DNA of 64,000 nt from a virus. The number at the start of each line of letters is the position of its first letter. Positions within the stretch are counted from its first letter, which is position 1. Made by a program: the position numbers and the translations under genes. The notes under the pieces were generated by a model that ran no database searches, was not told where the DNA came from, and was given only the letters and a program-made list of their open reading frames with translations. Shown here in pieces: positions 1,939 through 63,421 of the stretch. The stretch spans positions 32,001-96,000 of the IMG/VR virus record IMGVR_UViG_3300008259_000011. One strand, given 5' to 3'.

Positions 1939-2886
1939 ATGGACAAAATCAGTGGAATAGTACAAACACACAATCCAAATAAAGAAGGTAAACATCCGCA
2001 TTTGATCAATCGATCAAAAGCAAGTCACATGTTGAACCCACAGAAAGTGGAAGATACAGATACCAATTTGGTTCCTCTTAAAGATTGGAAACCCGGTGAT
2101 ATTGAAATGTTTGCAAGTATGGGGTTCTCAGGAGTAAACTCCGGAGACGAAGGATATCACATGGAAGAAGACAGTCTTCCTACAGAACTTGCAGATGAAA
2201 AGAAGTTTACACGACGTATATCCAGAACCAAAGATCATAAATGGGTACTCGAAAAGAAAAGTTTTTCAGAACCAAATGGTTCTTACAAATTAGAAAAAGT
2301 ATATGGTAAACTAATGGGTACCGATAAAAATCCCGGTCTATTAGATTATTTTGATACATTAACAAACGAATTGACAGAAAATCTATATTTATACAAAAGT
2401 ATGAAATTAAAATCTATCATAGAAAACCTTCCAGCATCAAAGATGTCACCACCTCAATCTGACATCACCGCAGTAAGTAAACACGCTGTTGCTGAAACTA
2501 CACACCCAGAACCAGTCGCACAAGCACCAGTGGTTCAACGTGGTCTATCCAAAGAACAAAAGAAGATGCTTCAAGAGTTGGTGTTTGAATATAACAAATA
2601 CAATGAAGTGTTGGAAGCACGTAAAACTTTGATGGAAGTCGCCAATAAGATGGGAAACATCGGTGAACTATCAGAAGCATACTTGGTAGAAAAACTTCAT
2701 GAAGGTAACAAAGAAGAAAACGCATGGTTCGAAGAAAAGACCATTCGTAAACATACTAACGAAATCAAAAAGATGACCACCGAATTCAAGAAGATGGCAG
2801 CTGACTGTGAATCAAAAATGAGAGAAATGCAAGGTCTATATCAAGAATGTGGCATGATGTTGGAACGTTATTTCCACATGGAATAA
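1939..2886 (+). CDS. Hypothetical protein with probable in-frame internal start at 2401 (MKLKSIIE...)
   Basis: 315 aa ORF; TATTTATA at 2386-2393 followed by in-frame ATG; coiled-coil C-terminus. Confidence 0.7.
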   Translation: MDKISGIVQTHNPNKEGKHPHLINRSKASHMLNPQKVEDTDTNLVPLKDWKPGDIEMFASMGFSGVNSGDEGYHMEEDSLPTELADEKKFTRRISRTKDHKWVLEKKSFSEPNGSYKLEKVYGKLMGTDKNPGLLDYFDTLTNELTENLYLYKSMKLKSIIENLPASKMSPPQSDITAVSKHAVAETTHPEPVAQAPVVQRGLSKEQKKMLQELVFEYNKYNEVLEARKTLMEVANKMGNIGELSEAYLVEKLHEGNKEENAWFEEKTIRKHTNEIKKMTTEFKKMAADCESKMREMQGLYQECGMMLERYFHME

Positions 2887-2899
2887 TTAATGTATAAAT

Positions 2900-2934
2900 A
2901 AAAAAAGAAACCCACTCGAAAGAGTGGGTTTTTT
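2900..2934. terminator. Bidirectional intrinsic terminator
   Basis: AAACCCACTC-GAAA-GAGTGGGTTT hairpin flanked by A and T runs, between convergent genes. Confidence 0.85.
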
Positions 2935-2951
2935 GTTGTTCAGGTTAAGTA

Positions 2952-5924
2952 TCAGAAGTAATTCTTGTAATCAGATTTGAAGTTTTCTTCGAACTTAGAT
3001 TTGTCGAATGACAACGGCTCGCCAGGTTTGACAATATCAGAACCGGTCTTTGGTGTTGCCTTAGCTCTTGTACCAGCTGCGGCCGACTTTGTTCTTTCAA
3101 TTCCAGCCTTCCTATCCTTTTCAGCAGCGGCCTTGTCATCATCCGCTTTCTTGAGCTTAGCTTGTTCCTCGTCACTGTCTTTTTTGGCCTTATCTACCTT
3201 TGCCTTTTCTTCATCATCCTTTTGAATCTGAGCCGTGTCGTCTTGACCATTCTTTGCGAGAGCAGTTAATTGATCAAAGATTTCTTTACCTCTTTTCTCA
3301 TTTGGATTGACTGTAACAAATGTTCCGTCTTTTTGTCTATGACTCCACGCACCTTTTTCAAACTTGAAAATATTTGGAACGTTTCCAAGTTTTACTTTTA
3401 ACATCAAACCATCCTTGATATTAACAGTTGGGGTCAAATCAATGTCTTTAAACAAGGCTTCCACTTGTGCATCAACCTTCATACCAGAAACAAGTTTTCC
3501 ATTAATAATATCAAAGATATCAAGAATATCCTTGATCACAGGCTTAACTTGTTCTTTTGTTGGACTTGCCACATTCAATGCTTTTAATGAAACTGATAAT
3601 TGATTAAGTTTAGTCAAAAACGCTTTAATCAACTTCAAATCCTTTTCATTAACATTTGGATCCGCAGCAACATTTTTCTCACCACGACCTTCAATGCCAG
3701 GTTGTGCATAAGTTGCATCCTCAGTAACAGGTGTTGCTGGAGTTTTTGGTAAACGAGGATTCATCACCTGACGTAATCCATAAGTAATGTTTACCAACAA
3801 TGGTATTAACGCCCCCAACTCCTTAGCAAATGTATTAATATCTGCCGAAGTCATTGCTTCTTTAACCAATTCTTTTCTCAACTGTTCAACATTACCACCC
3901 AATTGTTTTTGAATAGATGCTTTGTTAAGATTACTCAATGCAACTGATTTAATTTTTTGAAGTAATGCTTTTGCATACTTAGCATCAGCAGGATTTGACA
4001 TCTTCAACGTTGACATCGTTTTAATACGATTAGCCAAACCGCCTGCAACCAATGGATTTTGTTTTACAGAAGTTAATTGTTTAGTCAAAACCGGAGTCAA
4101 ATTAATTGGAGTACCACCGGCAAGTTTTGGCTCAGGTGTACCGGGCTTCGCTGGTTCTGGTTCTCCTGGCTTTGTTGGCTCAGGTTCACCGGGCTTCGCT
4201 GGTTCAGGTGTGCCTGGCTTCGTTGGCTCGGGTGTACTTGGAGTTGTTGGATCAGGTGTGCCTGGCTTTGGTTTTGGTGTTTTGCCACCGCCTCCACCGC
4301 CACCGCCTGGTGCGGTTCCACCGCCACCGCCTCCACCGCCTGGTGCGGTTCCACCGCCACCGCCTCCACCGCCTGGTGCGGTTCCACCGCCACCACCTCC
4401 ACCGCCACCACCTCCACCGCCTGGTGCGGTTCCACCGCCACCACCACCGCCTGGTGTAGCTGGGGTTGGAGGTGTTGAAGCTTCTTTATCATCTACAACA
4501 ACATCTTTAGGAAATTCCAATTTATATTTTGGAAACTCTGCCATCAAACTTTCAATGATATCAACAGCAGTTTTTGCTTGTGGAATTTTCTTTAAATTGT
4601 CCACCAACTCTGAGGTTGATGCACCTTTTACTTTAAATGTCTTTGCAACATCTTTTAGATATGTTGAAATTTCTTTTCCAATGTTAAACTTAAGATTCTC
4701 AACTGCTTTAAGTTGATTTGGATTCAATGTAGGTGCAGATGGAGTAACAGGAGTCGTTGGTGCTGTTGCAGGAGCAGATGTTGCCGGATCCGCTTCAGAT
4801 AAAATATCTTGTACGATATTAGACAACATCAAAGATTCATTTTTAATTGAAGGAATTGCTCCTACAGTGGCTCCCACCGGAGCACCACCAGCTAAAGTTG
4901 CAACACCGGTTTTAACGCCAGCTCCAACGGATGCTGATGCGCTTTCACCCTTTAACAAACCTAGACCTGTACGTAAAACAAAACTGACAGCCGTGGCAAG
5001 AATAAACACTTGTGAAGAAGCTAATACACCAAGACCCAATGTTCCTGCACTGATAGCTGCTGCAAAAGTTAACAAACCAATAATGATACCAGATTTAATT
5101 GGATTTTCACGTCCATATTTTCCTAATGCATCGATGGTACTAAGAATGGTAGAAGTTTCTTTACCAGATGAATCTATCTTTGATAGTTTATCACGAAGCA
5201 ACTTTTTCTTTACTTCAAACAAACGATCAAAATCTTGTACTGGTTGAAGGTTTTGAAGTTTTGCCCATTGTGCATCAAATACTTCATTTAATTTACGTGC
5301 CAACTTTTCAACACCACCGACACCAGCAAAAGCAGTTCCGGTCAACATTGCTGGAGTTAAAAGTGTACCAGCAAATGCTAAATCACCTGCACCACTTGCA
5401 ATTTGTTTACCCTTCTGCCAAATTCCACCGGCCCATCCACTCATCTTGACTGGAACAGAACCAACTTTATCAGGTATAGATTTATCAAATGTCTTGAGTT
5501 GACCTAAATAATCCCCCAAACTTCTTGTGAAGTTTTGGTTTCTGGCTTTAAGATATGCTTCGTTTCCTGCATCAGTTGTGGAACCTTTAACACCAAATTT
5601 ATTTTGTACCCAATTGCCAAGTGTACCACCCAACTTACCACCGGTGGCTAACTTGTTGATACCAGCTCTAGCTTTTGCTCCCAAACCGGCAGCTTTTGCT
5701 GCAAATTGATCACCAAACTTTTCTTGAATAAGTTGTTCGGTAATCTCAAGATTTTCCAACTGAAGAATCAATTCTTTTTGAGCAGACAGTCCGTCAATAT
5801 AGTGTTGAAAAAACTCTTTGGTTCTATCGCCAAAAAGTGATTCGTATTGATCAAAAAAAGCAACTTCCTCGGAAAGAAGTTGCTTGAAATATAAATTTTC
5901 AATTATCAGTTGAGTGTTGTTCAT
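2952..5924 (-). CDS. Large head-associated protein with hydrophobic segments and Gly/Pro repeats (putative ejection/internal protein)
   Basis: 990 aa, adjacent to prohead protease; hydrophobic stretch IIIGLLTFAAAISAGTLGLGVLASSQVFILATAVSFVL; poly-Gly and PEP-x-KPG repeats. Confidence 0.6.
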   Translation of the reverse strand: MNNTQLIIENLYFKQLLSEEVAFFDQYESLFGDRTKEFFQHYIDGLSAQKELILQLENLEITEQLIQEKFGDQFAAKAAGLGAKARAGINKLATGGKLGGTLGNWVQNKFGVKGSTTDAGNEAYLKARNQNFTRSLGDYLGQLKTFDKSIPDKVGSVPVKMSGWAGGIWQKGKQIASGAGDLAFAGTLLTPAMLTGTAFAGVGGVEKLARKLNEVFDAQWAKLQNLQPVQDFDRLFEVKKKLLRDKLSKIDSSGKETSTILSTIDALGKYGRENPIKSGIIIGLLTFAAAISAGTLGLGVLASSQVFILATAVSFVLRTGLGLLKGESASASVGAGVKTGVATLAGGAPVGATVGAIPSIKNESLMLSNIVQDILSEADPATSAPATAPTTPVTPSAPTLNPNQLKAVENLKFNIGKEISTYLKDVAKTFKVKGASTSELVDNLKKIPQAKTAVDIIESLMAEFPKYKLEFPKDVVVDDKEASTPPTPATPGGGGGGGTAPGGGGGGGGGGGGGTAPGGGGGGGGTAPGGGGGGGGTAPGGGGGGGGKTPKPKPGTPDPTTPSTPEPTKPGTPEPAKPGEPEPTKPGEPEPAKPGTPEPKLAGGTPINLTPVLTKQLTSVKQNPLVAGGLANRIKTMSTLKMSNPADAKYAKALLQKIKSVALSNLNKASIQKQLGGNVEQLRKELVKEAMTSADINTFAKELGALIPLLVNITYGLRQVMNPRLPKTPATPVTEDATYAQPGIEGRGEKNVAADPNVNEKDLKLIKAFLTKLNQLSVSLKALNVASPTKEQVKPVIKDILDIFDIINGKLVSGMKVDAQVEALFKDIDLTPTVNIKDGLMLKVKLGNVPNIFKFEKGAWSHRQKDGTFVTVNPNEKRGKEIFDQLTALAKNGQDDTAQIQKDDEEKAKVDKAKKDSDEEQAKLKKADDDKAAAEKDRKAGIERTKSAAAGTRAKATPKTGSDIVKPGEPLSFDKSKFEENFKSDYKNYF
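4120..4455 (-). repeat. Coding tandem repeats: (G)n-TAP-(G)n units of about 33 nt and PEP[AT]KPG[TE] units
   Basis: Repeated ccaccgccaccgcctccaccgcctggtgcggtt on + strand; GC-rich island. Confidence 0.9.
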
Positions 5925-5927: not shown

Positions 5928-6539
5928 TTATTTAACTTCAGAGATTATATCGTGAATCAACGATTCAATTTTTGCGTATTTGTTTACAGTAGTATTTTGT
6001 ACAGACTCATTCAATGCACCAGTTGGAAATAAAAATGCTCCTCTGGTCGATGGATTACTTACAAAATCAAATGCAATAAGTTCAAAATCGTCTTGAACTT
6101 CATCTGCATTTTCTCTTACATTTTTACGTACACTTCCTAAACCACGACTACTAATACCCAACTTAATACCGGCCTTAAAAAGTGCTTTTAAAATATTACC
6201 ACTTGGTGTAGGAAGTATTTCTACTTTACCAACCAAATCATCACCATTCCACATCATTTCAACAACGTTATGACTGACGTTTTGAAGATTGACAACGCTA
6301 CTGTCCGGATGGTCAAGTTCACCCAATGCACGGCGTTCTTTTACGAAGTTGTCTTCATACTTCTTGACTTCACGTTCCAAAATATCTTTTGGATATACAC
6401 GACCGTTTTGATTCTTTGCGTTTGCACGTTGAAGAACACCTTGCACGATCATAGATTTTGATGGATCGTCAGTTGCTTCATTCAACTGTCCACCAATTGG
6501 TTCAAAGAAAATCCAACCTGTTTGTACTGTTTTATCCAT
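5928..6539 (-). CDS. Prohead core protein protease (gp21-like)
   Basis: NQNGRVYP, ALGELDHP, GISSRGLGS, FDFVSNPST motifs. Confidence 0.95.
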   Translation of the reverse strand: MDKTVQTGWIFFEPIGGQLNEATDDPSKSMIVQGVLQRANAKNQNGRVYPKDILEREVKKYEDNFVKERRALGELDHPDSSVVNLQNVSHNVVEMMWNGDDLVGKVEILPTPSGNILKALFKAGIKLGISSRGLGSVRKNVRENADEVQDDFELIAFDFVSNPSTRGAFLFPTGALNESVQNTTVNKYAKIESLIHDIISEVK

Positions 6540-6541: not shown

Positions 6542-7081
6542 TTAAGCTTGTTTTTTCTGTTGTGGTTGTGCAACGTATTGTGTTTGTGGCATTGGCTTAG
6601 CGGTTTGAATTGCAACTTGTCCACCTTTTGTTGTTGCTTTTGTTCCCGGTTCAGCAGTTTTTGGTTCTTTAGGCTTTTCTATCTTTAATGGTTCACCTTG
6701 ACCCAAAATTGTAATCTTGAATCCGGGCTTCAAAAAGTATTCCTTATCATCCTCGTCACGTAGAATTACTACATAACGATCATAAAAATAGTCAAGACTG
6801 GTACTTGTTACTGAGATTTCATAATCACGAACAGGTTGACCGTATCCTTTGGATGCTTGTATTGATACCTTCTTACCCAAAACTCTATTGTTCAAATTTT
6901 GTAAGAATGCTGCTTTTGATTCAGCCGTTGTTCTTGCAATCTTTGCTTCAAAATCACTAAAATCTGAACTAACATTATAGTCTACAGAAGTAGCAGGCAA
7001 TGGTTGACCGCCCGCAGTCGATGTACCAAAATGTTGAGGATCGTTTTCGTCCTCGGTAAGTAATTTGACAAGTGAAATCAT
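6542..7081 (-). CDS. Hypothetical head-module protein
   Basis: 179 aa, operon-coupled; starts MISLVKLLTE. Confidence 0.75.
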   Translation of the reverse strand: MISLVKLLTEDENDPQHFGTSTAGGQPLPATSVDYNVSSDFSDFEAKIARTTAESKAAFLQNLNNRVLGKKVSIQASKGYGQPVRDYEISVTSTSLDYFYDRYVVILRDEDDKEYFLKPGFKITILGQGEPLKIEKPKEPKTAEPGTKATTKGGQVAIQTAKPMPQTQYVAQPQQKKQA

Positions 7082-8741: not shown

Positions 8742-10649
8742 TTATTCTAGTATGTTAGATTCATCCATCATGGATTTTTGTTTATTTTCGGAAATCAATG
8801 TTTGTTTTTCTTGTTTTGCAGTCTTGAGATATGAGTCTAAAGTAGTCAATTCCTTATTGATACTTTCAAGACTAAACGGTGAAGATCCTGTGAACTTATG
8901 ATTTGGGGATCTATCTGCTTTAAAATCCCTATTCATTTCAAGATGACCGAGTGGATCTTCTCCGAATGGATAATTACTGGCCTTTTTCAATCCTTTTTGA
9001 GACGGACGTTCATAGTCTGGCTTTGACTTTTCCTTCAATGTAGGAATTTCTGCACCACCAGCTTCTCCTCCACCAGCAGGAGCGGATTCACCGCCAGCTT
9101 CTCCACCGGTTTCACCGCCTCCACCACCGCCACCGCCACCGCCTTCTTCTGGACTAACTTTTTGGAATGACTTGGCAGGATCATTACCTTCTTCTTCAAT
9201 CTGTTTAAATCTGTATGTCTGTTTTGCGTCATCAACAATATCGTTTTTGATATTGTTCATGTCATCATCTGACATATGGAAAATTTCGTTGTATACCCAC
9301 TTTTTACTAAACAACTTATTATCCAACATGTCTTTAGCGACAGATACCTTATTTGACCAAATGTCGATCTTTTCCTTTTCAAATACCGTTGATGGATTGG
9401 TAAGTTCCAAACTAAAATCAACCAAACTTGAATCTCTGTATCCTTGTGCATACAAGTGTACAATACCAATCTTGGTCAATTCACTGATAAGAATTTGTTG
9501 AATACGTTGAATTGTACGAGAAAAACGAACATCTTCTTGTGCCAATGTAGCTTTACCACTCAAATCTTCATCATAACTCAAGAACGCCTTAGGTATCTTG
9601 AGAGCAGCCATCATTTTCTTACGCAGATATTCAATATCGTCCGTGCCAGTGAATTCCATGCCACTAAGAGATTCAATGCTGGTACCACTATCACCACCAC
9701 GAACAGGAAGATAAAAATCTTCAACCATGTTTTGAAGATTGAAACGAAGATTGTAATCACCACTTTTTTCATCGATATATGGTACCTTTTTGGTTTTAGC
9801 AATCAACTTTTCCATATATGAGTCAATCTCGTTTGGAGGAATATTACCAACGTCAATCTTGAAAATACGTTTTTCAGGAGCACGCATAATACGATGAATC
9901 AACATTGCGTCTTCCATCAAACTCAATTGTTTCCAAACGCGACGAGCACCTTCCAACATACTCTTACCATATGGCAAGAAGTTACTATCACTCAATAAAC
10001 GAAAATGTGCTACTTGATAGTTTTCAAGATCTTCGACCTTACCACCGTCAGGTAGGTTGACTTGAAATTTGATATAGTTCTTATTATACAAATCACTGTT
10101 TTCAACACGGGTTACATTATAAGCACTAATTGGCTCAATCATATAAACTCCGTACTCGGGACTGATATAAAGTCTAAGATAAAAATCGCCGTACTTACAC
10201 ATGTTACGAACATAACTCCAAAGGTTAAATTCGATATTCATGATATCATAATACAAGTTACGAAGTATCTGTTTGATATTATCATTTGGTGTATTGATCA
10301 CCAAAACATCTCCCATTTCGTTACGTGTCAATGATTCATCCGCGTAAATATCCAATGCAGAACTAAGAATTGGATCCATGTCCATCGTATCATAATCTCT
10401 GAATAATTCGATACGAGCGGCTTGATAACTAAGGGTGAAATCTCTACTATACTGATTGTACGCAGAAGTACGAATACGATTAAAACGGTCACGTAGTGTG
10501 TTTCTATCCGTAGCGTATGCTACTTCATCGGTATCTACTACCTTTAACTTTTTACCACCAACGTTACGTACAATAACGTCTGTAGAGAAAAGTCTCTTAA
10601 GACGAGCAAATAGTGATCTGCTCTTTAAATCTGTCGGTTGATCTGCCAT
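8742..10649 (-). CDS. Portal protein (gp20-like)
   Basis: LMEDAMLIHRIMRAPEKRIFKIDVGN, EDFYLPVRG, ALKIPK motifs. Confidence 0.95.
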   Translation of the reverse strand: MADQPTDLKSRSLFARLKRLFSTDVIVRNVGGKKLKVVDTDEVAYATDRNTLRDRFNRIRTSAYNQYSRDFTLSYQAARIELFRDYDTMDMDPILSSALDIYADESLTRNEMGDVLVINTPNDNIKQILRNLYYDIMNIEFNLWSYVRNMCKYGDFYLRLYISPEYGVYMIEPISAYNVTRVENSDLYNKNYIKFQVNLPDGGKVEDLENYQVAHFRLLSDSNFLPYGKSMLEGARRVWKQLSLMEDAMLIHRIMRAPEKRIFKIDVGNIPPNEIDSYMEKLIAKTKKVPYIDEKSGDYNLRFNLQNMVEDFYLPVRGGDSGTSIESLSGMEFTGTDDIEYLRKKMMAALKIPKAFLSYDEDLSGKATLAQEDVRFSRTIQRIQQILISELTKIGIVHLYAQGYRDSSLVDFSLELTNPSTVFEKEKIDIWSNKVSVAKDMLDNKLFSKKWVYNEIFHMSDDDMNNIKNDIVDDAKQTYRFKQIEEEGNDPAKSFQKVSPEEGGGGGGGGGGETGGEAGGESAPAGGGEAGGAEIPTLKEKSKPDYERPSQKGLKKASNYPFGEDPLGHLEMNRDFKADRSPNHKFTGSSPFSLESINKELTTLDSYLKTAKQEKQTLISENKQKSMMDESNILE

Positions 10650-55845: not shown

Positions 55846-55859
55846 TGATCTTTTCAAAC

Positions 55860-55891
55860 AAAAAACCGTTGATCTTTTGGACCAACGGTTT
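55860..55891 (-). terminator. Intrinsic terminator
   Basis: AAACCGTTGGTC-CAAAA-GATCAACGGTTTTTT. Confidence 0.75.
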
Positions 55892-56024
55892 CAAATCTGA
55901 GCAATTGTTTTTTAACCGTTAGTCTAGTTTAGCTTGCGCTAGGGAGTAGCGATGGACTTGGTTGTCCACTGGCTACACTTGACTGTACGGATAAATTCAT
56001 TATGACAATACATATAGTTAAATT

Positions 56025-56957
56025 TCACAAATGTACATTATTTTTGAACCAAAAGTAAGTTTTTTCCAAACCGTCCATCAAATTTGTACGAGGTTTCCAT
56101 CCCATCGATAAGATTTTAGAACTGTCCATGATCTTACGTGGCGTACCATCAGGTTTGGCAGTATCCCATACAACTTCACCTTCATACCCCACAACTTTAC
56201 ATACAGCTTCAGTTGCCTCTTTAATGGTAATATCAGATCCATATCCCACGTTGATATGTTGATCAGCGCTGTAATTTTCCATCAAAAACACACACGCTTC
56301 CGCTAAATCATCAACATACAAAAACTCTCTCATAGGAGTTCCACTTCCCCAACAAACAACTTGAGAATCATTCTTGATTTTTGCCAAATGGAATTTACGA
56401 ATCAATGCGGGTAACACATGAGAGTTAATTGGATCGAAGTTGTCCTTGATACCATACAGATTGCATGGCATAGCACTGATAAAATCACACCCATATTGTT
56501 GACGATACGCTTGACATGTACGTATACCGGCAATCTTTGCAAGAGCATACCACTGATTGGTTGGTTCTAATTCACCGGTTAACAGATACTCTTCCTTAAT
56601 TGGTTGCTGTGCAAACTTCGGATAAATACAACTGCTACCCAAAAACAACAATTTGTTTACGTTATATACGTATGACGCATTAATGATGTTATTTTGTATC
56701 TGTAAATTATTGTATATAAAATCAGCTGGGTATGTACTGTTGGCAATAATACCGCCAACTTTTGCTGCTGCCATTATCACATACTCTGGCTTTGTAGTTT
56801 CAAAAAATTTATTTACAGATTGTTGATTGGTAAGATCCAATCCATTATGACCCACACCTATTAAATTCGTATAACCATTATTCAATAGTGTTCGCCAAAT
56901 AGCAGATCCAACCATTCCGTTATGTCCGGCTACATAAATCTTCGAACCTTTATTCAT
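56025..56957 (-). CDS. fcl: GDP-L-fucose synthase
   Basis: YVAGHNGMVGS, AAAKVGGI, LGSSCIYP, YALAK, PCNLYG, DGTPRK; start revised to MNKGSK. Confidence 0.95.
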   Translation of the reverse strand: MNKGSKIYVAGHNGMVGSAIWRTLLNNGYTNLIGVGHNGLDLTNQQSVNKFFETTKPEYVIMAAAKVGGIIANSTYPADFIYNNLQIQNNIINASYVYNVNKLLFLGSSCIYPKFAQQPIKEEYLLTGELEPTNQWYALAKIAGIRTCQAYRQQYGCDFISAMPCNLYGIKDNFDPINSHVLPALIRKFHLAKIKNDSQVVCWGSGTPMREFLYVDDLAEACVFLMENYSADQHINVGYGSDITIKEATEAVCKVVGYEGEVVWDTAKPDGTPRKIMDSSKILSMGWKPRTNLMDGLEKTYFWFKNNVHL

Positions 56958-57027
56958 AGTCTTAATGGTACATATCAAATAACATATTATTAAAATGAAA
57001 AAACCACCCAAAGGTGGTTTTCTTTTT

Positions 57028-57261
57028 TCATCCATTCAAACGTGGCTTGTCACAACAATTGCTAAGTTTTAGAATTTCATCAAGTGACTCTTTAACCCGA
57101 ATAGGTTCATGACGATTCTTGATAAAAATCAAACTGTGAACCTTGGACGGTTCAATGTTAATAACCATATCCAAGTTAATCAAATTTGGATTATACTCAC
57201 GTTGCTTAGCGTTACCGTCATGACTAGGATCAAGTACGTTGAGTTTAATAAAGTGTGCCAT
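57028..57261 (-). CDS. Small protein, FlbD-like pattern
   Basis: INLDMVINIE..IRVKESLDEI; TATTTATA at 57272-57279. Confidence 0.55.
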   Translation of the reverse strand: MAHFIKLNVLDPSHDGNAKQREYNPNLINLDMVINIEPSKVHSLIFIKNRHEPIRVKESLDEILKLSNCCDKPRLNG

Positions 57262-57338
57262 AAATTGTGTCTATAAATAGTTAACCGGCAATGACATTAC
57301 ATCATTGCCGGTTGTTTGTCAACTATTATCGTCTAGAA

Positions 57339-58034
57339 TTAGAAGGTCAACTTAAGACCACCGGAATAAACGACGGTTCCAGAGAACTCACGATTTGCCC
57401 AATTATACTTGGCAGCATTGAAATCGTTATCGAACCATCCAACTTCAGCAAATGGAGTCAAAGTACCCCAAGCAAAAGTGAACGGACGAGCAACAGTGCC
57501 CTTAAAGCTAAGGGACTTGTAGTCATTAACGTATCCATACTCAGCAGCTGGGGTGACAGTCACACCATAAAACAAATTCTGAGTACGGCTAAGTCCAACG
57601 AACACGCCTTGCTGATTAAGGTCAATATCGAATGCACCACGAACATATGGAGTAACATATGGGTTGTTCAAGGCAACCTTGGCACCAAACTCAGTAGAGT
57701 TAGGAATACCAAATCCGCCAGCTTGGTGACGAGTAACATCAGCGGTAGTACGCAATGAAAACTTCTCGGTCAAACCAAAACTCTTACCAGCACCAAGTGT
57801 CCAGTGACTCTGATCTTGATCACCAGTTGGTAGCAACACACCACCAGCATACACATCAGCATACTTTAGACTCTTGATTGCGTTGACACCAACAAACGGA
57901 GTTCCCCCAGAACGAGAAACACCATTGACCACATAGTGGTTATTATAGCCAGCTTCGACTCCAATACTAGAGTCATTAGCCTTAGCGATTAGGGCAGCAC
58001 AAAGAACTGCCAATACTGCGATCATCTTCTTCAT
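57339..58034 (-). CDS. Outer-membrane beta-barrel protein
   Basis: Signal peptide MKKMIAVLAVLCAALIAKA; amphipathic strands; C-terminal GGLKLTF; SD AAAGGA; promoter TTGACA-17-TATATT at 58145-58173. Confidence 0.8.
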   Translation of the reverse strand: MKKMIAVLAVLCAALIAKANDSSIGVEAGYNNHYVVNGVSRSGGTPFVGVNAIKSLKYADVYAGGVLLPTGDQDQSHWTLGAGKSFGLTEKFSLRTTADVTRHQAGGFGIPNSTEFGAKVALNNPYVTPYVRGAFDIDLNQQGVFVGLSRTQNLFYGVTVTPAAEYGYVNDYKSLSFKGTVARPFTFAWGTLTPFAEVGWFDNDFNAAKYNWANREFSGTVVYSGGLKLTF

Positions 58035-58283
58035 ATATGTTTATTTCCTTTCGTTACTACACTTTTTATAACTACCTTAACACTCATTAAGTTTGTTATA
58101 GATTGATGTGATTCAAAGATACACATTCAATCATGTACGTGGACAATATACCGTTAAACACCAAAAGTGTCAACGAATTTTTTCCAGTGATATATAGTTT
58201 TTACTTTTTTGAAAACTACGACGTTTTTTAGACCATATATACGCACAAAAAAAGCCAAACAACTTAATGTTTGACTTTAAATT

Positions 58284-58372
58284 TGGTACCACCGGCCGGA
58301 CTTGAACCGGCACAGGATTTTACTCCCTGCGGATTTTAAGTCCGCTGTGTCTGCCTATTTCACCACGGTGGC
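58284..58372 (-). tRNA. tRNA-Leu(TAA)
   Basis: Loop CTTAAAA, V-arm. Confidence 0.93.
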
Positions 58373-58382
58373 ACTATTAAAT

Positions 58383-58466
58383 TGGTGGGTATGGAGGGAG
58401 TCGAACCCCCACGCCTTTCGGCGGTTGATTTTGAGTCAACTACGTCTGCCATTCCGTCACATACCC
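58383..58466 (-). tRNA. tRNA-Leu(CAA)
   Basis: Loop CTCAAAA, V-arm. Confidence 0.93.
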
Positions 58467-58474
58467 GTAAATCA

Positions 58475-58561
58475 TCAAACTCATCGTGCTTCCTACCTAC
58501 ACTACGCCTCCTCATTGATTTGAGAGAGTGACGGACCTTGAACCCGTCCCTATGCGTTTGA
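58475..58561 (-). ncRNA. Permuted tRNA-like RNA (YrlA Y RNA-like)
   Basis: Outer stem TCAAACGCAT/ATGAGTTTGA, then T-arm (TTCAAGG loop), loop-closed acceptor-like stem, D-arm GTGT-AGGTAGGAA-GCAC. Confidence 0.6.
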
Positions 58562-58565
58562 AAAA

Positions 58566-58657
58566 TGGTAGCCTCATGCAGAATCGAACTGCCCAGAACG
58601 CCAATCGAGCGATTATAGAGATTATAAGTCTCCCCATGCACCTTACATCTTGAGGCC
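58566..58657 (-). tRNA. Atypical tRNA with TAT anticodon and long variable arm
   Basis: GGCCTCA/TGAGGCT-A-CCA, loop CTTATAA, about 24 nt V-region, 4-bp T-stem. Confidence 0.75.
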
Positions 58658-58663
58658 ACTAAA

Positions 58664-58781
58664 TGGTAGCGGGGCAGTCCTATTAAATTTTAAAGAACCA
58701 AATTGAAATTGGGTCGGATGTATCTATTGAACACTTTATCCATCCGACAAACAAAGTGTACCATGTACTAGCCCCGCAACC
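58664..58781 (-). ncRNA. CCA-terminated tRNA-like structured RNA
   Basis: GCGGGGC/GCCCCGC-TA-CCA terminal stem; GTCGGATG/CATCCGAC; CCAA-TTTCAAT-TTGG. Confidence 0.55.
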
Positions 58782-58863
58782 AAGAAGTTTTTTAAGAGAT
58801 CTTCAATACTCTAGGGGTTGTGGTTTAACCCTCCACCATGTTGTTTACGAGAAACAACCAAAT

Positions 58864-58939
58864 TGGTAGTCCATAGGAGAATCGAACTCCTATTAACAGG
58901 TTGAAAACCTGCTGTCCTAAACCATTAGACGAATGGACC
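58864..58939 (-). tRNA. tRNA-Glu(TTC)
   Basis: Loop TTTTCAA, CCA. Confidence 0.92.
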
Positions 58940-58947
58940 GTTAAAAT

Positions 58948-59020
58948 TGGAGCAGGTCCGAGGAATCACACCTCACCAACTCACTAGAATGTGAGCATGC
59001 TCTCATTACATCTGACCCGC
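58948..59020 (-). tRNA. Aberrant tRNA-Gly-like gene with 6-nt anticodon loop
   Basis: GCGGGTC/GACCTGC-T-CCA; CTCAC-ATTCTA-GTGAG; T-loop TGTGATT. Confidence 0.65.
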
Positions 59021-59027
59021 GTTAAAA

Positions 59028-59318
59028 TTCTGGAAGGACTCCTGACTACCTTCAATTTTCACAATACTACATGCATTCGTCCACAGTCCACATGGTCAAT
59101 TACTCCGTGTGTTGATGACTGGTGGGCCTTATTTTCCCCACAACGACCTACGATATATCAGATATTATATTAGCTACGATGTCGTTACGCTTGGATTTCG
59201 GTTGATCGACCTAGATCCGCCATAGACTTGCCACATAGTATTATTACTCATACCTTGCCTTGGTTCTTCACCTCAGCAGTGCGTTACCCCTATAAGAAGA
59301 GTTATTCCGCCACTAGAA
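59028..59318 (-). ncRNA. Putative ~290-nt structured RNA
   Basis: GC-richer block without a convincing ORF directly behind promoter TTGACA-16-TATACT (59345-59372). Confidence 0.45.
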
Positions 59319-59383
59319 ATTGTCAAAGATCTAATATACCCTAGAGTATATATAGAGTGTTGAACTTGTCAACACAAAAAATT

Positions 59384-59458
59384 TGGTGCGTCCGGCGAGA
59401 CTTGAACTCGCAACCAACAGATTAAAAGTCTGCTGCTCTACCATTGAGCTACGAACGC
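59384..59458 (-). tRNA. tRNA-Lys(TTT)
   Basis: Loop CTTTTAA. Confidence 0.94.
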
Positions 59459-59464
59459 GTTTGT

Positions 59465-59575
59465 TTAAAGATCATCATCTTCGTACCTAGAATTCATACC
59501 ACAGAACCTAGCAACCATCAAGAGAAAAATGATGTAAATTGTAAGTCCGATAAGAAGTCCAAGTGCCAGTTTCAT
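59465..59575 (-). CDS. Small single-pass membrane protein (36 aa)
   Basis: MKLALGLLIGLTIYIIFLLMVARFCGMNSRYEDDDL*; promoter TTGACA-17-TAGGAT at 59585-59613. Confidence 0.6.
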   Translation of the reverse strand: MKLALGLLIGLTIYIIFLLMVARFCGMNSRYEDDDL

Positions 59576-59609
59576 TATGGATACATCCTACACCGAGAAT
59601 GTTGTTCTG

Positions 59610-59792
59610 TCAACTGTTTTTGTGAGAATTTTCTTTGATCCAATCAAGACGGTGTTTGTTCACCCAATCTGTTAGTGCTTTTTCAAATCCAATATCAGCG
59701 TTGGCTTTTTCAGATTCGATCCACTTGTGTTTAAGAATTTCATCCCGTATCTTAAGATATTTTGCATATGAAGATGTCGGTTTGGAACTCAT
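59610..59792 (-). CDS. Small conserved protein (DUF4032-like, PVC-type)
   Basis: RDEILKHKWIESEKANADIGFEKALTDW; start revised to MSSKP. Confidence 0.7.
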   Translation of the reverse strand: MSSKPTSSYAKYLKIRDEILKHKWIESEKANADIGFEKALTDWVNKHRLDWIKENSHKNS

Positions 59793-59849
59793 ACTCAAAT
59801 AAATAGTTGTTCGTAACAAAACCGTTACATTTGAATGTATAAATAAAAT

Positions 59850-59924
59850 TGGAGTTCCGTGTTGGATTTGCACCAACCTAATGCTGTTTTGCAGACAGCC
59901 GCCTAACTACTCGACCAACGAAAC
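59850..59924 (-). tRNA. tRNA-Cys(GCA)
   Basis: Loop CTGCAAA, U73. Confidence 0.9.
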
Positions 59925-59930
59925 ATAAAG

Positions 59931-60009
59931 TGGGGTGTACGGCGGGATTCGAACCCGTATCTGCCAGACTCACAATCTGGGGCATTAAACCAGTTATGCT
60001 ACATACACC
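59931..60009 (-). tRNA. tRNA-His(GTG)
   Basis: Loop TTGTGAG, encoded G-1:C73. Confidence 0.92.
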
Positions 60010-60017
60010 ATTAAAAA

Positions 60018-60091
60018 TGGAGCCTCCAGCTGGTATCGATCCAGCGTTTCATCATTACCAATGATGTGTAATACCTTTATACTATGAAGGC
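60018..60091 (-). tRNA. tRNA-Thr(GGT)
   Basis: Loop TTGGTAA; T-loop ATCGATA. Confidence 0.88.
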
Positions 60092-60096
60092 AAAAG

Positions 60097-60174
60097 TGGT
60101 ACTGCCGGTAGGAGTCGAACCTACAACCTTCTGATCCGTAGTCAGATGCTCTAATCCAATTGAGCTACGACAGC
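60097..60174 (-). tRNA. tRNA-Arg(ACG)
   Basis: Loop CTACGGA. Confidence 0.93.
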
Positions 60175-60183
60175 ATTATAAAT

Positions 60184-60260
60184 TGGCGCACCCGGAGGGA
60201 CTCTAACCCCCAACCTTTCCGGTAGAAACGGATGGCTCTATACAATTGAGCTACGAGTGC
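60184..60260 (-). tRNA. tRNA-Arg(TCT)
   Basis: Loop TTTCTAC; T-loop TTAGAGT. Confidence 0.88.
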
Positions 60261-60270
60261 GTTAAAATTA

Positions 60271-60672
60271 TTAGTTATGCATATTACTACCAGCTCCATA
60301 TCCATTTTGTAATTTTGGAGTATTTAAGATTTCATCTTTTGGATCTGGATACACACTGAAAAAATAATGAATGTCATCATTCTTTTTATTTGTGGAATAT
60401 AATAAAAAATTTACATTACCATTTGGATGTCCTCTACCGTCAAATATATAATAATATTCAGGATCAGTGCCAGATAAGGCTGCTTTTGGCACATCTTTAA
60501 CATATTTAAAGAACACCTCCGAAGATATTCTATATACATTATCATCATCACCTAATGTATTTTGCATCCACATAGCCGGTTCTGTAGAATCATCACCCAA
60601 TCCAAATTGACATATTAATCCTACACAATTACCCAAATATTGTTCTTTTAGTAAACTTGATAATTTAATCAT
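60271..60672 (-). CDS. Hypothetical protein with N-terminal MIKLSSLLKE tag
   Basis: Start revised; TATTTATA 3 nt upstream. Confidence 0.7.
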   Translation of the reverse strand: MIKLSSLLKEQYLGNCVGLICQFGLGDDSTEPAMWMQNTLGDDDNVYRISSEVFFKYVKDVPKAALSGTDPEYYYIFDGRGHPNGNVNFLLYSTNKKNDDIHYFFSVYPDPKDEILNTPKLQNGYGAGSNMHN

Positions 60673-60701
60673 AACTATAAATATATCAAACTTATTTAAG
60701 A

Positions 60702-60775
60702 TGGTAGGCAATCACGGTTCCGCCCCGTGGTCTTTCGATTATCAGTCGAATGCTCTACTATTGAGCTAAATGCCT
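60702..60775 (-). tRNA. tRNA-Ile(GAT)
   Basis: Loop CTGATAA; atypical T-loop GGCGGAA. Confidence 0.85.
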
Positions 60776-60781
60776 ATTAAA

Positions 60782-60860
60782 TGGCGAGGGTAGCCGGATT
60801 CGAACCGAGCAAGTCTGCACAGTGACAGTGTGCTATGTTAGCCAATTACACTATACCCCC
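60782..60860 (-). tRNA. tRNA-Asp(GTC)
   Basis: Loop CTGTCAC, G73. Confidence 0.9.
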
Positions 60861-60871
60861 ATTAAAATTAA

Positions 60872-60976
60872 TCACCAACACGATAGTTAGCTCATAGGCA
60901 TATTCGGTTATTGTTCGTCGTCAACAATAATCCCGCTATCTCTTTTACCACACGACCTGCTTCATAGAGTTGGTGA
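60872..60976 (-). ncRNA. Putative structured RNA
   Basis: TCACCAAC/GTTGGTGA terminal stem; GATAG/CTATC; TTATTGTT/AACAATAA. Confidence 0.45.
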
Positions 60977-60979
60977 AAT

Positions 60980-61057
60980 TGGTGCAAGTGATGGGATTTG
61001 AACCCACAACCTTTCGGGTAAGAGCCGAATACTCTGATCCAGTTGAGTTACACTTGC
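60980..61057 (-). tRNA. tRNA-Lys(CTT)
   Basis: Loop CTCTTAC. Confidence 0.9.
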
Positions 61058-61062
61058 ATAAA

Positions 61063-61162
61063 TGGTTTTCCTAGGATTTCACAGTTGTTCTCTTGTTTCG
61101 TGCCCTACTCCAAGATCTATCTAGTTCCGCCAGGTGCACCGAAATTTTGGTATCACCTGTAA
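61063..61162 (-). ncRNA. Putative structured RNA, junction motif copy B, ends in ACCA
   Basis: CTAG-ATAGA-TCTTG..CAAGA-GAAC..GTGAAATC-CTAG; promoter TTGACG-16-TAAGAT at 61197-61224. Confidence 0.55.
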
Positions 61163-61243
61163 AATTTGTATCTATTATTGTCAACGAACGATAAACATCT
61201 TACCACACTTTATTGTTCCGTCAACAATATTCTTAAAAAAATT

Positions 61244-61996
61244 TTAAGTACTAACTGGTTTCTTTGGATAAGGTTGAACTGGTTTAACCAAGTTTGCCAG
61301 AATGTTCTTTCCTTCACTAGAGTTTGTACCGGATAAAATGTAAATATACTTATGTTTACCGTAATCAATCCGTAATTCAAACGGACTGTCAGGATTTGTT
61401 TTTAAATCACGAACTGCATCTCCAGCAGTTTTAAATCCATATTTTTCTATCTGCGGTTTTCTATTAACCCATCTATCTTCATTTTTATCCCACAAACGTT
61501 TTCTAGTTCTACTCTTACCTAGATAAATTGCGTTTGTAGCTTGATATACAGTGCCAGTGTGTCCTTGTTCACTATCAGACCGAGTAATAATTACTTTTAC
61601 TTTAGGATAATTTTGTTTGATCGTTTTATTACCTAATCCAATTACGTATGATGCCAAATTATTTTTTAATTCAGGTATTTCTTTCACTTCTGGTTTTAGA
61701 TATAATCTTAACAATTCTAATAATTCATTCTGTTTAAGTAAACTATTACCTTTATCATCCACAGCTATTTCTTGAAAATCTTGTGGCTTGGTAGTCTGTC
61801 CATATACAATAACCCCAACCATATCTACATTGCCATCAGGCATCTTGTACATCACACCATAATTAACAGTAACCGCTGTTGGATACTTCTTTAGATAATG
61901 TTTGTTTATAAAGTCTATAACCTCAGACTTACTCTTTGGTTCTAGATATACACTATCTTTTAGAGATTCTATCAACAAACTCTTAAATGTTATCAT
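61244..61996 (-). CDS. Mom-like (GNAT-fold) DNA-modification protein with N-terminal tag
   Basis: HYL, VGVIVYG, ELLRLY, SD..QGHTGTVYQATN.IYLG, K.KY, PYPK motifs; start revised to MITFKSLLIE. Confidence 0.75.
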   Translation of the reverse strand: MITFKSLLIESLKDSVYLEPKSKSEVIDFINKHYLKKYPTAVTVNYGVMYKMPDGNVDMVGVIVYGQTTKPQDFQEIAVDDKGNSLLKQNELLELLRLYLKPEVKEIPELKNNLASYVIGLGNKTIKQNYPKVKVIITRSDSEQGHTGTVYQATNAIYLGKSRTRKRLWDKNEDRWVNRKPQIEKYGFKTAGDAVRDLKTNPDSPFELRIDYGKHKYIYILSGTNSSEGKNILANLVKPVQPYPKKPVST

Positions 61997-62015
61997 ATCG
62001 TATAAATAGTAAACA

Positions 62016-62143
62016 TTGAGGATTTCACGGGGGATAATTACTTCTAGAGAGTAAGTCCCAAACGGCTGTATAGCCTTACCGTTCCACATTTTATACTCCT
62101 TCACCAGAGGGAATCGAACCCCAGAGAAATGTGTCTATCTCAA
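62016..62143 (-). ncRNA. Putative structured RNA, junction motif copy C with T-loop hairpin
   Basis: TTGAG-ATAGA-CACATTT..AAATGTG-GAAC..GTGAAATC-CTCAA; internal GGGTTCGATTCCC. Confidence 0.55.
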
Positions 62144-62299
62144 AAATATATGAGTGGTAGCTGCACCCACTCTCCGTCTTCCCAAGTTTCTCGTCTGGCC
62201 ACATCTAAGGGCATCCACTTGGATAGTTGATATCGGAGTATAGAGGCAATAACTCTTTGTTCAGATATGAACAATCCTTTACAAGTCTTGTTCAAAAAA

Positions 62300-62375
62300 T
62301 GGCCCGATAGGTTGGTAACGCTCCAACGTCCCTTCGTCTTCAGCGAAGTGCTAATACTATCTCAGCTACTACCGG
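62300..62375 (-). tRNA. tRNA-Phe(GAA), atypical
   Basis: Loop CTGAAGA; T-loop AGCGTTA; C1:G72, G73. Confidence 0.8.
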
Positions 62376-62471: not shown

Positions 62472-62477
62472 AGTAAA

Positions 62478-62576
62478 TAACAGAGTGGTTTTGAACCAAT
62501 CCCATAGAGAATCGTGCATCTTGCCTGGCGTCAAACTCCAAGCCTTCATTGCTAATTCGATCTATACACTCTGTCA
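62478..62576 (-). ncRNA. Structured RNA with T-loop
   Basis: TGACAGAGTG/CACTCTGTTA stem; ATAGA/TCTAT; TGG-TTCAAAA-CCA. Confidence 0.45.
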
Positions 62577-62593
62577 AATCGTTTTTTGATACA

Positions 62594-63421
62594 TTAAAAT
62601 CTAATATCATCAGTGGAATCGTCAAATCTTTTCTCTAATGGAATTGGAACTCCATCGTCATCATAAGTAATCAACTCCGCTGATTTAACTTGATTTGGGT
62701 TAAAAACTGCATATACAATTCCTGTACCCGAATGAATTTTTCCTTCAAATCCACGATTTTCAATTTGAATAAATCCTGTGTATCCTTTGTTCTGAATCCA
62801 TTCTCTTAAAGACAGCCACTTTCCACCATTTCGGAAAGCCCATAATTCTATAATAGACCAAGAAGATTCATCAATAGCTTGATATACAGAATCTATAACT
62901 TTAACTTTATTAGAGTCGTCGTATCGTCTATAATCTGGATCTCTCCACGCCCATTCATGTTCATATTCATCTGTTAATTCTTGAGGTATGTAGTGTGTTG
63001 GATTATCCGTTCCAGACATTCCGAATAAAGAGTATTCTGTTCCAGGCATCATTCCATTTTCTTTCTCTTTTTGAAGTTGCCATTCATAACATTTTTTTAT
63101 AACAGATTTTAAAAACTGTTTCGTTTTTGAATCTCTCAAATCAAAGAAATTGGCTTTTAGATAAACTTTGTAAATTTTACTATTTTTACCGAACGACGTT
63201 GTACCTTGTCCTGTCTCTTTTTTATAAATTTCCGCATGTTCTTTATTATCAGTAAAATATAACGCTCCTCTTTTTGAGACTCTAAAATTGTTAAAGGATT
63301 TATCACCTATAACAGTTCCGTGAAATAAAGGTCCGACAGTATAACCTTTACTATTTGCTGCTTTTTTAACGTCGGCTTCATCCCATTGAGATTCCACAAT
63401 TAGAGATTTAAGTTTAATCAT
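62594..63421 (-). CDS. ADP-ribosyltransferase-like (ART-PolyVal-like) protein with N-terminal tag
   Basis: LFHGT..F..F...LYFT...A..Y, VYLK, GY.G, YAVFNPNQVKSA; starts MIKLKSLIVE. Confidence 0.65.
   Translation of the reverse strand: MIKLKSLIVESQWDEADVKKAANSKGYTVGPLFHGTVIGDKSFNNFRVSKRGALYFTDNKEHAEIYKKETGQGTTSFGKNSKIYKVYLKANFFDLRDSKTKQFLKSVIKKCYEWQLQKEKENGMMPGTEYSLFGMSGTDNPTHYIPQELTDEYEHEWAWRDPDYRRYDDSNKVKVIDSVYQAIDESSWSIIELWAFRNGGKWLSLREWIQNKGYTGFIQIENRGFEGKIHSGTGIVYAVFNPNQVKSAELITYDDDGVPIPLEKRFDDSTDDIRF

Follow-up and report, generated by a model that had tools for sequence, protein, structure and literature searches.

A Short N-Terminal Peptide Shared by Unrelated Proteins of a T4-Like Phage Is Probably a Capsid-Targeting Propeptide

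Introduction

Otherwise unrelated proteins begin with nearly the same peptide of 8-10 residues in IMG/VR virus record IMGVR_UViG_3300008259_000011, a contig of 134,143 bp from an uncultured freshwater phage, and we consider it probable from the sequence that this peptide (hereafter, the tag) is a T4-type capsid-targeting propeptide that is removed by a gp21-type protease. Bases 32001-96000 of the contig form the 64,000-nucleotide window analyzed here; coordinates are those of the window, and coordinates of the whole contig are marked "genome." The propeptide reading is based on the enrichment of the tag at N-termini, the unrelatedness of the proteins that carry it (the cargo), conservation at the peptide level, a layout like that of T4, a cleavage-type motif at the end of the tag, and an intact protease. 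It is further supported by orthologues that keep the tag, by distant homologues of a Mom-like protein and of an ADP-ribosyltransferase (ART) that are without it, and by its reuse on homologues of a 329-aa protein made of recombining modules. In addition, a tagged 179-aa gene occupies the T4 gp67/gp68 position, and the product that starts at 2401 is encoded by a head-module gene in relatives.

We infer late expression, core binding, cleavage, head residence, and injection as the steps of the mechanism. The tagged genes would be expressed late, together with the head genes, and the first eight residues of each product would form a short amphipathic helix, hydrophobic at positions 4, 7, and 8, that docks the protein onto the scaffolding core during prohead assembly. 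Cleavage after Glu10 by the gp21-type protease would follow, like that of the major capsid protein (MCP) after L-L-D-E, and the mature protein would stay inside the head. The predicted cargo comprises the ART, the Mom-like enzyme, a flavodoxin/FMN-reductase-like protein, the two-module 329-aa protein, and several proteins of no known family. Some cargo, most plausibly the ART, may leave the head with the DNA at infection, like T4 Alt and the T4 internal proteins; by analogy with these, the chance that the cargo enzymes are injected seems to us slightly below even.

Occurrence and Conservation of the Tag

An earlier sequence-only reading of this DNA had pointed to six near-identical N-termini on unrelated genes. 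All six were found, with starts at 63421 (-), 60672 (-), 61996 (-), 13663 (-), 7081 (-), and 2401 (+) (peptides in Table 1), and the proteins have no similarity past the tag. N-terminus and motif counts refer to the 147 open reading frames (ORFs) called across the full contig. The strict pattern M-[IVL]-[KSTR]-[LFIM]-x-x-[LFIM]-[LIVM]-x-E matched 6 of these 147 N-termini; the Mom-like gene had been called from an earlier ATG, hence its absence from this count, and becomes the seventh match at its second ATG. Two of the strict tags lie outside the window, at genome 29306 (-; the 329-aa protein) and genome 98564 (-; 483 aa, MIKLKPLLVE).

Chance was ruled out as the source of the shared peptide, with 7 tags found against 0.004-0.008 expected. 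Stripped of its Met, the pattern was found 2 times in 37,120 internal positions, equivalent to 0.008 matches at N-termini; residue composition predicts 0.004-0.007, and 2000 shuffles of residues 2-12 gave a mean of 0.006 and a maximum of 1. The motif is thus far commoner than in shuffled N-termini, as had been supposed. When a scoring matrix trained solely on 58 tags from other phages and from database proteins was run over the ~37,000 positions of this proteome, six tagged N-termini took ranks 1-6 and the seventh rank 14. Paralogy of the tagged proteins was likewise ruled out: once residues 1-16 were removed, no BLASTP pair among the seven fell below E 2.3.

Pairs of tags have 3-8 of 10 residues in common, and the codon differs at 0-6 of those positions; Ser6, for example, is TCT or AGT, and Leu is CTT, TTA, TTG, or CTC. 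Because the common residues use different codons, conservation, as judged from the sequence, acts on the peptide and not on a copied stretch of DNA. All seven tags have the gp21-type end Leu/Ile-x-Glu. In 70 non-redundant tags, chosen by a pattern that itself restricts positions 2, 4, 7, 8, and 10, position 4 is Leu in 66, position 7 is Leu, Ile, or Phe in 70, position 8 is Leu or Ile in 66, and position 10 is Glu in 70. An alignment of 10 orthologues of the 251-aa protein, not selected by pattern (62-88% overall identity), has M1, L4, D6, L8, and E10 invariant and residues 11-29 variable. In both AlphaFold2 models (of the 251-aa and 329-aa proteins), the first 16-18 residues lie outside the confident fold.

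Tagged Proteins

The ART-like and Mom-like labels given earlier were borne out, both proteins scoring above the Pfam cut-offs. The 275-aa protein reaches 35.2 bits for PF18760 (cut-off 31.2). It was not placed in the Alt/ModA/ModB ART families, its only other Pfam match at E<=1 being a weak one to the non-ART MPS2 (E 0.021), and on sequence it is an analogue of T4 Alt from outside that family. HMMER returned 1315 homologues at E<=0.001. Among the best 150 of these, 99 exceed 1000 aa and are ART domains of giant multidomain proteins; of the 34 with at most 500 aa, some bear other peptides that resemble the T4 capsid-targeting sequence (CTS), among them the T4-like MKTFKQYIKE and MKTFKEYFEE, and others begin at the domain. 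The single full-length orthologue (56% identity) begins MILLKSLITE. A word-based protein search found only the 275-aa protein itself, a sequence search of PDB found nothing meaningful (best E 1.1), and its relatives among IMG/VR viral contigs amount to 4 partial loci.

The Mom-like protein scores 94.1 bits against PF25680 (cut-off 27.1) and matches phrog_1384 (E 3e-30), which by sequence places it in the family; every one of its 105 homologues also has PF25680. On inspection, most of the close homologues (P0002-P0049) have an N-terminal extension ending [LIV][LI]-x-E before x-L-K-D, and the distant family members (P0050-P0106) begin at the domain, without a tag. The expectation that homologues should lack the tag was therefore borne out for distant Mom members and some ART homologues, but other short ART homologues carry CTS-like peptides. 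Just upstream of the Mom-like frame (61997-62115, -) stands GGTTCGATTCC, which resembles the 3' part of a tRNA.

Pfam searches at E<=1 gave no match for the 133-, 179-, 251-, and 203-aa proteins. For the 251-aa protein, a model with a mean pLDDT of 61 (residues 1-18 below 50) had 48 PDB matches at E<=0.001 in Foldseek, with query-normalised TM-scores of only 0.34-0.47; the matches listed are FMN reductase, NQO1, WrbA, ArsH, or flavodoxin, and the Atlas search led to FMN_red clusters with scores of 0.90-0.95. The model thus predicts, at moderate confidence, a flavodoxin/FMN-reductase-like fold, so the earlier flavodoxin-like label agrees with the fold matches but shares the moderate confidence of the model and its low TM-scores.

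The two modules of the 329-aa protein also occur apart and in other arrangements, with GNAT, ART-PolyVal, deaminase, and topoisomerase domains, and the strict tag heads 31 of its 89 homologues. Its model (pLDDT 77, residues 1-16 below 50) had no PDB or BFVD match at E<=0.001. The C-terminal module, of ~130 aa, contains the motif GGICHLIA, stands next to domains of all four kinds in database proteins, and matches no Pfam model. For the 483-aa protein (genome 98564), the best Atlas score was 0.88, to an unnamed cluster, and no family was found.

Start at 2401 and Degenerate Copies of the Tag

The start at 2401 lies within ORF 1939-2886 (+), an in-frame fusion of a 154-codon ORF and, after it, a head-module gene, on the strand opposite the head genes; the promoter-like motif is translated as LYLYKS within this ORF. 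The fused arrangement, together with the promoter-like sequence inside the frame, is conserved in five close relatives. Another 22 relatives, more distant, encode the segment on the head-gene strand as a gene of its own within the head module, with a product of 130-161 aa. The tag (in forms like MIKLKHLVEN or MKLKHLLEN) opens 12 of these 22 genes, and in 14 a copy of ATATTTAT(A/T) ends 2-5 nt ahead of the start; the remainder have longer N-terminal variants such as MNTLKLRPLIEN or no such motif. Since these stand-alone homologues begin there, 12 with the tag and 14 with the motif, the internal start at 2401, noticed by the sequence-only reading, is on comparative grounds a genuine gene start.

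Other genes have degenerate copies whose counterparts come closer to the pattern. The 203-aa gene after the capsid gene begins MIKLKGIMSGE here and MINLTDIVDE in an orthologue, the 192-aa gene at genome 102489 begins MIKLMEILRN here and MIRLKDLLLE in a homologue, and the 171-aa gene at genome 124706 begins MQYRDFFIE here and MIKLIDLLTE in its homologue in Flavobacterium phage immuto.

Protease, Capsid Protein, and Other Head Proteins

The gp21 homologue recognized earlier is present as a Peptidase_S77 protein (Table 1) with 35% identity to T4 gp21 over 147 residues (E 1e-25). It matches PDB 5jbl at E 5e-18 and retains His (GELDHP) and Ser (GISSRG), two positions at which crystallised 5jbl departs from the T4 record; these are predicted to be the catalytic residues. 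This protease is presumed to be the enzyme that removes the tag. Protease N-termini of the clade have [LI]-x-E-[AS] at about residues 19-22.

Near residue 60, the MCPs of the clade (19 N-termini compared) conserve Q-L-[LI]-[DSN]-E with A, S, or G as the next residue, and LPLVRRVF comes ~22 residues later. T4 gp23 offers a parallel, with FLTE/A (slash, cleavage position) ahead of MVRRAI. The end of the tag has the same form as the presumed maturation site of the MCP. The very N-terminus of the MCP also resembles the tag (MSDIKSLLTE in several relatives, MSADVKSLLT here), which suggests that the tag may imitate the part of the MCP that meets the core.

The core to which the tag would bind is presumed to be the acidic 355-aa protein, to which position and composition assign a putative scaffold role; PHROGs and Pfam gave no family match for it. 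The C-terminal tail of this putative scaffold was considered as the model for the tag and rejected: the matrix scan gave no high score there, and the best site is internal, at residue 180. The 990-aa protein encoded after the protease is a candidate large internal head protein.

These head proteins bear on the main rival explanation, namely that the tag is a prohead-core propeptide on proteins that act solely in assembly or in the head, being scaffold-like, size-determining, or DNA-condensing, or being degraded or expelled like gp22, gp67, and gp68. The gene at 6542-7081 and the 2401 product belong to the head module, similar N-terminal sites are carried by the scaffold-like and 990-aa proteins, and a passage of PMC9026906 states that T4 core proteins are cut into fragments that exit the head. 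However, the ART, Mom-like, and FMN-reductase-like enzymes have no evident role in assembly, and such accessory, strain-variable, or rare enzymes fit host-directed cargo better; moreover, T4 Alt is a packaged and injected ART (note in the T4 record; a passage of PMC5512222). We consider a role confined to assembly or to the head to be improbable.

A Second Shared N-Terminus

A second common N-terminus, MTKxELKQLIRE, was observed on four proteins that have no significant BLAST similarity past it. It contains the same core, L-K-x-L-I-x-E, shifted by two residues, and the tag matrix scan places it at ranks 8, 10, and 19; relatives have it at the start of small ORFs that lie between portal and protease.

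One of the proteins headed by this peptide belongs to the baseplate module and another has a faint sigma-70 region 4 match, and the cargo is biochemically very mixed; all this would suit an amphipathic helix with a role away from the capsid, such as targeting to a membrane or replication compartment, docking to a chaperone or phage protein, or a degradation signal, all the more as capsid loading is here predicted from sequence. Such a role is nevertheless quite unlikely. Glu10 is invariant in all pattern-matching tags, which is so by construction, and also in the alignment of 251-aa orthologues; the end of the tag is identical in form to the MCP maturation site; and the tag stands on head-module genes in a layout that matches the propeptides of T4 gp24 and the T4 internal proteins (IPs).

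Conservation and Turnover in Relatives

The tag extends to relatives. In 80 loci collected around related portals, the strict tag was found on 38 of 796 ORFs. With a looser pattern, the same loci gave 48 ORFs; among them the 179-aa protein has 7 orthologues and the 251-aa protein 14, and a 344-350-aa family and 7 capsid proteins are also included. The proportions 7/7 and 14/14 refer to tag-matching ORFs that are orthologues, as tagged ORFs alone entered the counts. In phage immuto, MENFDLKKFLVENKLT heads four proteins that are dissimilar past residue 20, and the genes of two stand directly upstream of the terminase; the predicted tag is MENFDLKKFLVE on gp003, gp076, gp077, and gp092. It also has one MIKLIDLLTE and one MISIYNILKE. 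Because immuto puts a different peptide on its four proteins, the core L-K-x-[FL]-L-x-E appears to be common and the prefix lineage-specific.

Contigs of two RNA-library runs of one study join 61163 to 62011, skipping the 847 nt of 61164-62010. Bounded by TTTAC on either side, the skipped segment consists of exactly the tagged Mom-like gene with its promoter motif and ~80 nt of 3' flank. Other joints, in a third RNA-library run, also skip the Mom-like gene, and the DNA run compared has no joint. The skip is probably strain variation rather than RNA processing, and it is the sole evidence here for cassette-like gain or loss. A broader picture can be drawn, in which the tag marks a strain-variable injected set in a widespread freshwater T4-like clade, promoter-tag-gene units are gained and lost between tRNA genes, the tag mimics the MCP N-terminus, and the cargo includes Mom-like and flavin reductase enzymes not known as T4-like cargo, so that a tag scan would predict anti-defence effectors in uncultured phages; this picture is tentative, and we think it more probably wrong than right.

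Promoter-Like Motif

The motif TATTTATA ends 6, 3, 4, 7, and 7 nt before the ATG of 63421, 60672, 61996, 13663, and 2401, respectively, so the spacing of 3-7 nt reported earlier for five of the six genes was confirmed; it is not present before 7081, a gene that follows the stop of the upstream gene. It occurs 43 times; 21 copies lie up to 40 nt ahead of a called start and point the same way as the gene, versus 2 copies that point the opposite way. Motifs of this type are the reverse complement of the T4 late-promoter octamer, and despite this likeness the motif is strand-specific here (21 versus 2). The spacer ATGATAT is common to two tagged genes, those at 63421 and genome 98564.

In its relaxed form, TA[TC]TTAT[AT], the motif ends 2-12 nt before the ATG in 26 of the 147 genes, with no Shine-Dalgarno sequence between, and these 26 take in 5 of the 7 tagged genes (Fisher p 0.002). 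No tag is present on the other 21, a set with quite different N-termini to which tail-fibre-like and neck genes belong; tail and baseplate genes also carry the motif. The motif thus appears to mark a class of genes, structural ones among them, rather than tagged genes in particular, and it fits late expression. It may act as a -10-like late promoter, in which case many late mRNAs would have little or no leader, or as a signal for translation.

Because these 21 motif genes are untagged, the motif does not belong to a tag cassette, and such starts do not require the tag. The portable promoter-plus-tag cassette proposed in the sequence-only reading is therefore not supported, with the motif on 21 untagged genes and the tags kept as peptide and not as DNA; the 847-nt skip is one point in favor of cassette-like turnover. 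The T4-like capsid-targeting interpretation that it accompanied stands as the probable one, on the layout, the cleavage-type motif, the protease, and the conservation in orthologues. A constraint on nucleotides, by which leaderless mRNAs need certain first codons or a promoter-plus-start cassette was recently copied, would account for the motif 3-7 nt before five tagged genes, the A/T-rich ATG ATT AAA, and the spacer shared by 63421 and genome 98564, but is nearly excluded by the different N-termini of the 21 genes with the motif at most 12 nt from the ATG, the absence of the motif from two tagged genes, the different codons of conserved residues (including TCT versus AGT for Ser), and conservation that reaches residues 7-10 and orthologues at 62-88% identity.

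Points That Weigh Against the Capsid-Targeting Reading

Several observations weigh against reading the tag as a capsid-targeting propeptide. The Mom-like frame is open for 31 codons upstream, to 62089 (MWNGKAIQPFGTY...), and some distant Mom homologues have a similar in-frame extension (EWNKPFAYYEG) before the tag; the Mom-like tag may hence be internal in some products. The mature cargo has pI values of 4.6-9.5, unlike the basic T4 internal proteins, and a reason to package a flavin reductase-like or Mom-like enzyme is not obvious. N-terminal amphipathic L-x-E helices are not exclusive to head cargo, since MTKxELKQLIRE heads a baseplate-module protein and the loose pattern also matches the large terminase of relatives.

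Among relatives, the head region of Microcystis phage Mel-JY01 (portal 50% identical) has the strict tag on 0 of 27 annotated coding sequences and uses GGAG-type ribosome sites; no literature on this phage was found. The late timing is read from the motif, and PHROGs gave no gp55-like late sigma factor among 127 ORFs of a contig that is apparently incomplete. RNA-library contigs cover parts of the ART and 133-aa genes, and such contigs cannot show transcript starts or timing. For this phage and its relatives, no virion proteomics, N-terminal sequencing, or packaging assay was found in the literature, and a non-exhaustive literature search found no paper that describes such a tag in this clade.

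Genomic Context

The window (GC 36%) contains a T4-type head module with portal, large terminase, and Peptidase_S77 prohead protease, the gp23-family MCP lying just past the left edge (Table 1). The portal profile match reaches E 2e-70. Other products of the window are baseplate proteins, PhoH, Hsp20, and tmRNA. ARAGORN called 23 tRNA genes, and Rfam added two more. The 127 ORFs scanned with PHROGs yielded neither a DNA polymerase nor a sheath protein or late sigma factor, and because of this and because the contig runs to its ends, the genome is probably incomplete.

In the phage collection, the nearest portals are those of immuto (52%) and Mel-JY01 (50%), followed by Rhodothermus phage RM378 (31%) and cyanophages (26%). 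Judged from the nearest isolate, a Flavobacterium phage, the host probably belongs to the Bacteroidota. More than 600 IMG/VR stretches encode a related portal, and the stretch with tRNA and tagged genes is near-identical in 14 DNA runs of freshwater or lake origin, which come from 10 studies or more.

The tmRNA (50452-50851, -; Rfam 142 bits) adjoins a cluster of 22-25 tRNA genes (51513-62375), among which small ORFs are scattered, including a 69-aa FeoA-domain protein at 53837-54046. The Rfam-only tRNA matches at 60705-60775 (-) and 63456-63557 (-, 102 nt) each end ~30 nt upstream of a tagged-gene start, and tRNA-Ile(tat) at 58566-58657 was called by ARAGORN and is absent from the Rfam list. 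Elsewhere, a 1069-aa ORF at 16051-19260 (-) has an N-terminal part that matches an SbcD/Mre11-like nuclease and a remainder that matches an SbcC/Rad50-like ATPase, and is a fusion of two subunits; T4 encodes the SbcD and SbcC counterparts separately, as gp47 and gp46.

Table 1. Tagged genes and related head-module features, with window coordinates unless marked "genome" (a slash in a peptide marks the presumed cleavage position).
Feature	Coordinates	Strand	N-terminus	Remarks
ART-PolyVal protein, 275 aa	62594..63421	-	MIKLKSLIVE	PF18760; TATTTATA at 63428-63435; Rfam-only tRNA 63456-63557 upstream
Mom-like protein, 250 aa	61244..61996	-	MITFKSLLIE	PF25680; TATTTATA at 62001-62008
Protein of no found family, 133 aa	60271..60672	-	MIKLSSLLKE	TATTTATA at 60676-60683; Rfam-only tRNA 60705-60775
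Flavodoxin/FMN-reductase-like protein, 251 aa	12908..13663	-	MVKLSDFLVE	TATTTATA at 13671-13678; upstream of 202-aa ORF and large terminase
179-aa protein	6542..7081	-	MISLVKLLTE	Directly upstream of prohead protease, the T4 gp67/gp68 position
Coiled-coil product, 161 aa	2401..2886	+	MKLKSIIE	Starts inside ORF 1939-2886; TATTTATA at 2386-2393 inside the longer ORF
329-aa protein	genome 28317-29306 (outside window)	-	MIKLKDLLNE	Two modules
gp21-type prohead serine protease	5928..6539	-		Peptidase_S77 E 1e-30; own N-terminus QLNE/A at residues 18-21
MCP (gp23 family), first 44 codons	3..134 (whole gene genome 30509-32134)	-	MSADVKSLLT	Presumed maturation site LLDE/A at residues 57-60
Acidic 355-aa protein, gp22 (scaffold) position	177..1244	-	MSDLLKE	pI 4.25; four internal hydrophobic-hydrophobic-x-E sites
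990-aa protein after protease	2952..5924	-	MNNTQLIIE	Hydrophobic, Gly-rich, and Pro-rich stretches; candidate large internal head protein
T4-type portal (gp20 family)	8742..10649	-		PF07230; anchors head module; query for collecting relatives
Proteins with second shared N-terminus	38206-38625; genome 99488-100048, 100053-100442, 128097-128579	-, -, -, +	MTKxELKQLIRE	Shared N-terminus

Implications

Should head loading by the tag prove correct, the proteins that abundant freshwater phages deliver before their own gene expression could be listed by a simple sequence rule; the candidates would include host-takeover and anti-defence proteins of no found family. The rule would also offer a ready-made tag for packaging foreign proteins in Bacteroidota phages, as the T4 CTS does in E. 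coli. Head loading would, in addition, carry the T4 mechanism over to a lineage whose portal shares no more than ~26-31% identity with the portals of RM378 and the cyanophages among T4-like phages.

Comparison with Known Systems

In the T4 record, ipII and ipIII begin MKTYQEFIAE, and ipI begins MKTFKEF with ITE/A at residue 19; gp24 begins MAKINELLRE, gp21 MNEPQLLIE, gp22 MLKEQLIAE, and Alt MELITE, and gp23 has FLTE/AE at residue 65. A fourth ORF (54 aa) with the CTS-like start MKTFKEFIKE was observed at ~19.1 kb of that record. According to a passage of PMC9026906, the first 10 residues of IPIII suffice for incorporation, with targeting mainly by residues 4 and 7 and processing by residues 8 and 10, and Asp in place of Glu at position 10 prevents processing in T4 while targeting persists; passages there and, for the T-even internal proteins, in PMC3012670 describe the CTS as possibly a general T4-like route for loading various proteins.

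The tag and the T4 CTS are both N-terminal peptides of ~10 residues on unrelated proteins, hydrophobic at 4, 7, and 8 with Glu at 10; in both phages a gp21-family protease is encoded in the head module, an ART is among the tagged proteins, and tagged genes stand in or beside the tRNA cluster, like ipI, ipII, and ipIII. The peptides themselves differ (MIKLKSLLxE here, MKTYQEFIAE in T4), with only Met1 and Glu10 identical, and the tag is nearer to the start of T4 gp24 (MAKINELLRE) than to the IP peptide. The start of the 990-aa protein, MNNTQLIIE, resembles that of T4 gp21 (MNEPQLLIE). Judged by sequence comparison, the layout is common to both, and homology is not demonstrable over 10 residues. 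Unlike T4, this genome has more tagged proteins, at least 7 strict and ~10 with degenerate copies; its cargo includes Mom-like and FMN-reductase-like enzymes and is of mixed pI rather than basic, its ART belongs to the ART-PolyVal family, its host is probably a member of the Bacteroidota, and its system is known from sequence alone.

Packaging of a DNA-modification enzyme like the Mom-like protein has a precedent in the Dar system of phage P1, whose capsid carries DNA-acting enzymes (DarB and others) that enter the host along with the genome and protect it. The Dar proteins are loaded by ordered dependence on other Dar proteins, and are not known to use a short cleavable N-terminal tag.

In the giant phages SPN3US and phiKZ, according to passages of PMC5694885, a gp21-related protease likewise cuts after Glu at a short motif, and the N-terminal propeptides of ejection proteins, with conserved N-termini on diverged proteins, would direct their proteins into the prohead; most of those propeptides, however, exceed 100 residues and have the motif A-x-E or S-x-E, whereas the tag has 8-10 residues and ends [LI]-x-E. 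The polyvalent proteins, as presented in passages of Iyer et al. 2017 (PMC5512222), include the same ART family and are predicted to be packaged and injected with the DNA, and the modules of the 329-aa protein, too, recombine with GNAT, ART, and deaminase domains; in contrast to the 2-15 domains that polyvalent proteins unite in one polypeptide, the cargo here consists of separate small proteins, each with its own tag. As passages of PMC3012670, PMC9026906, and PMC5694885 indicate, the phenomenon was anticipated in the T4 literature, and the tag described here widens a known idea and does not overturn it.

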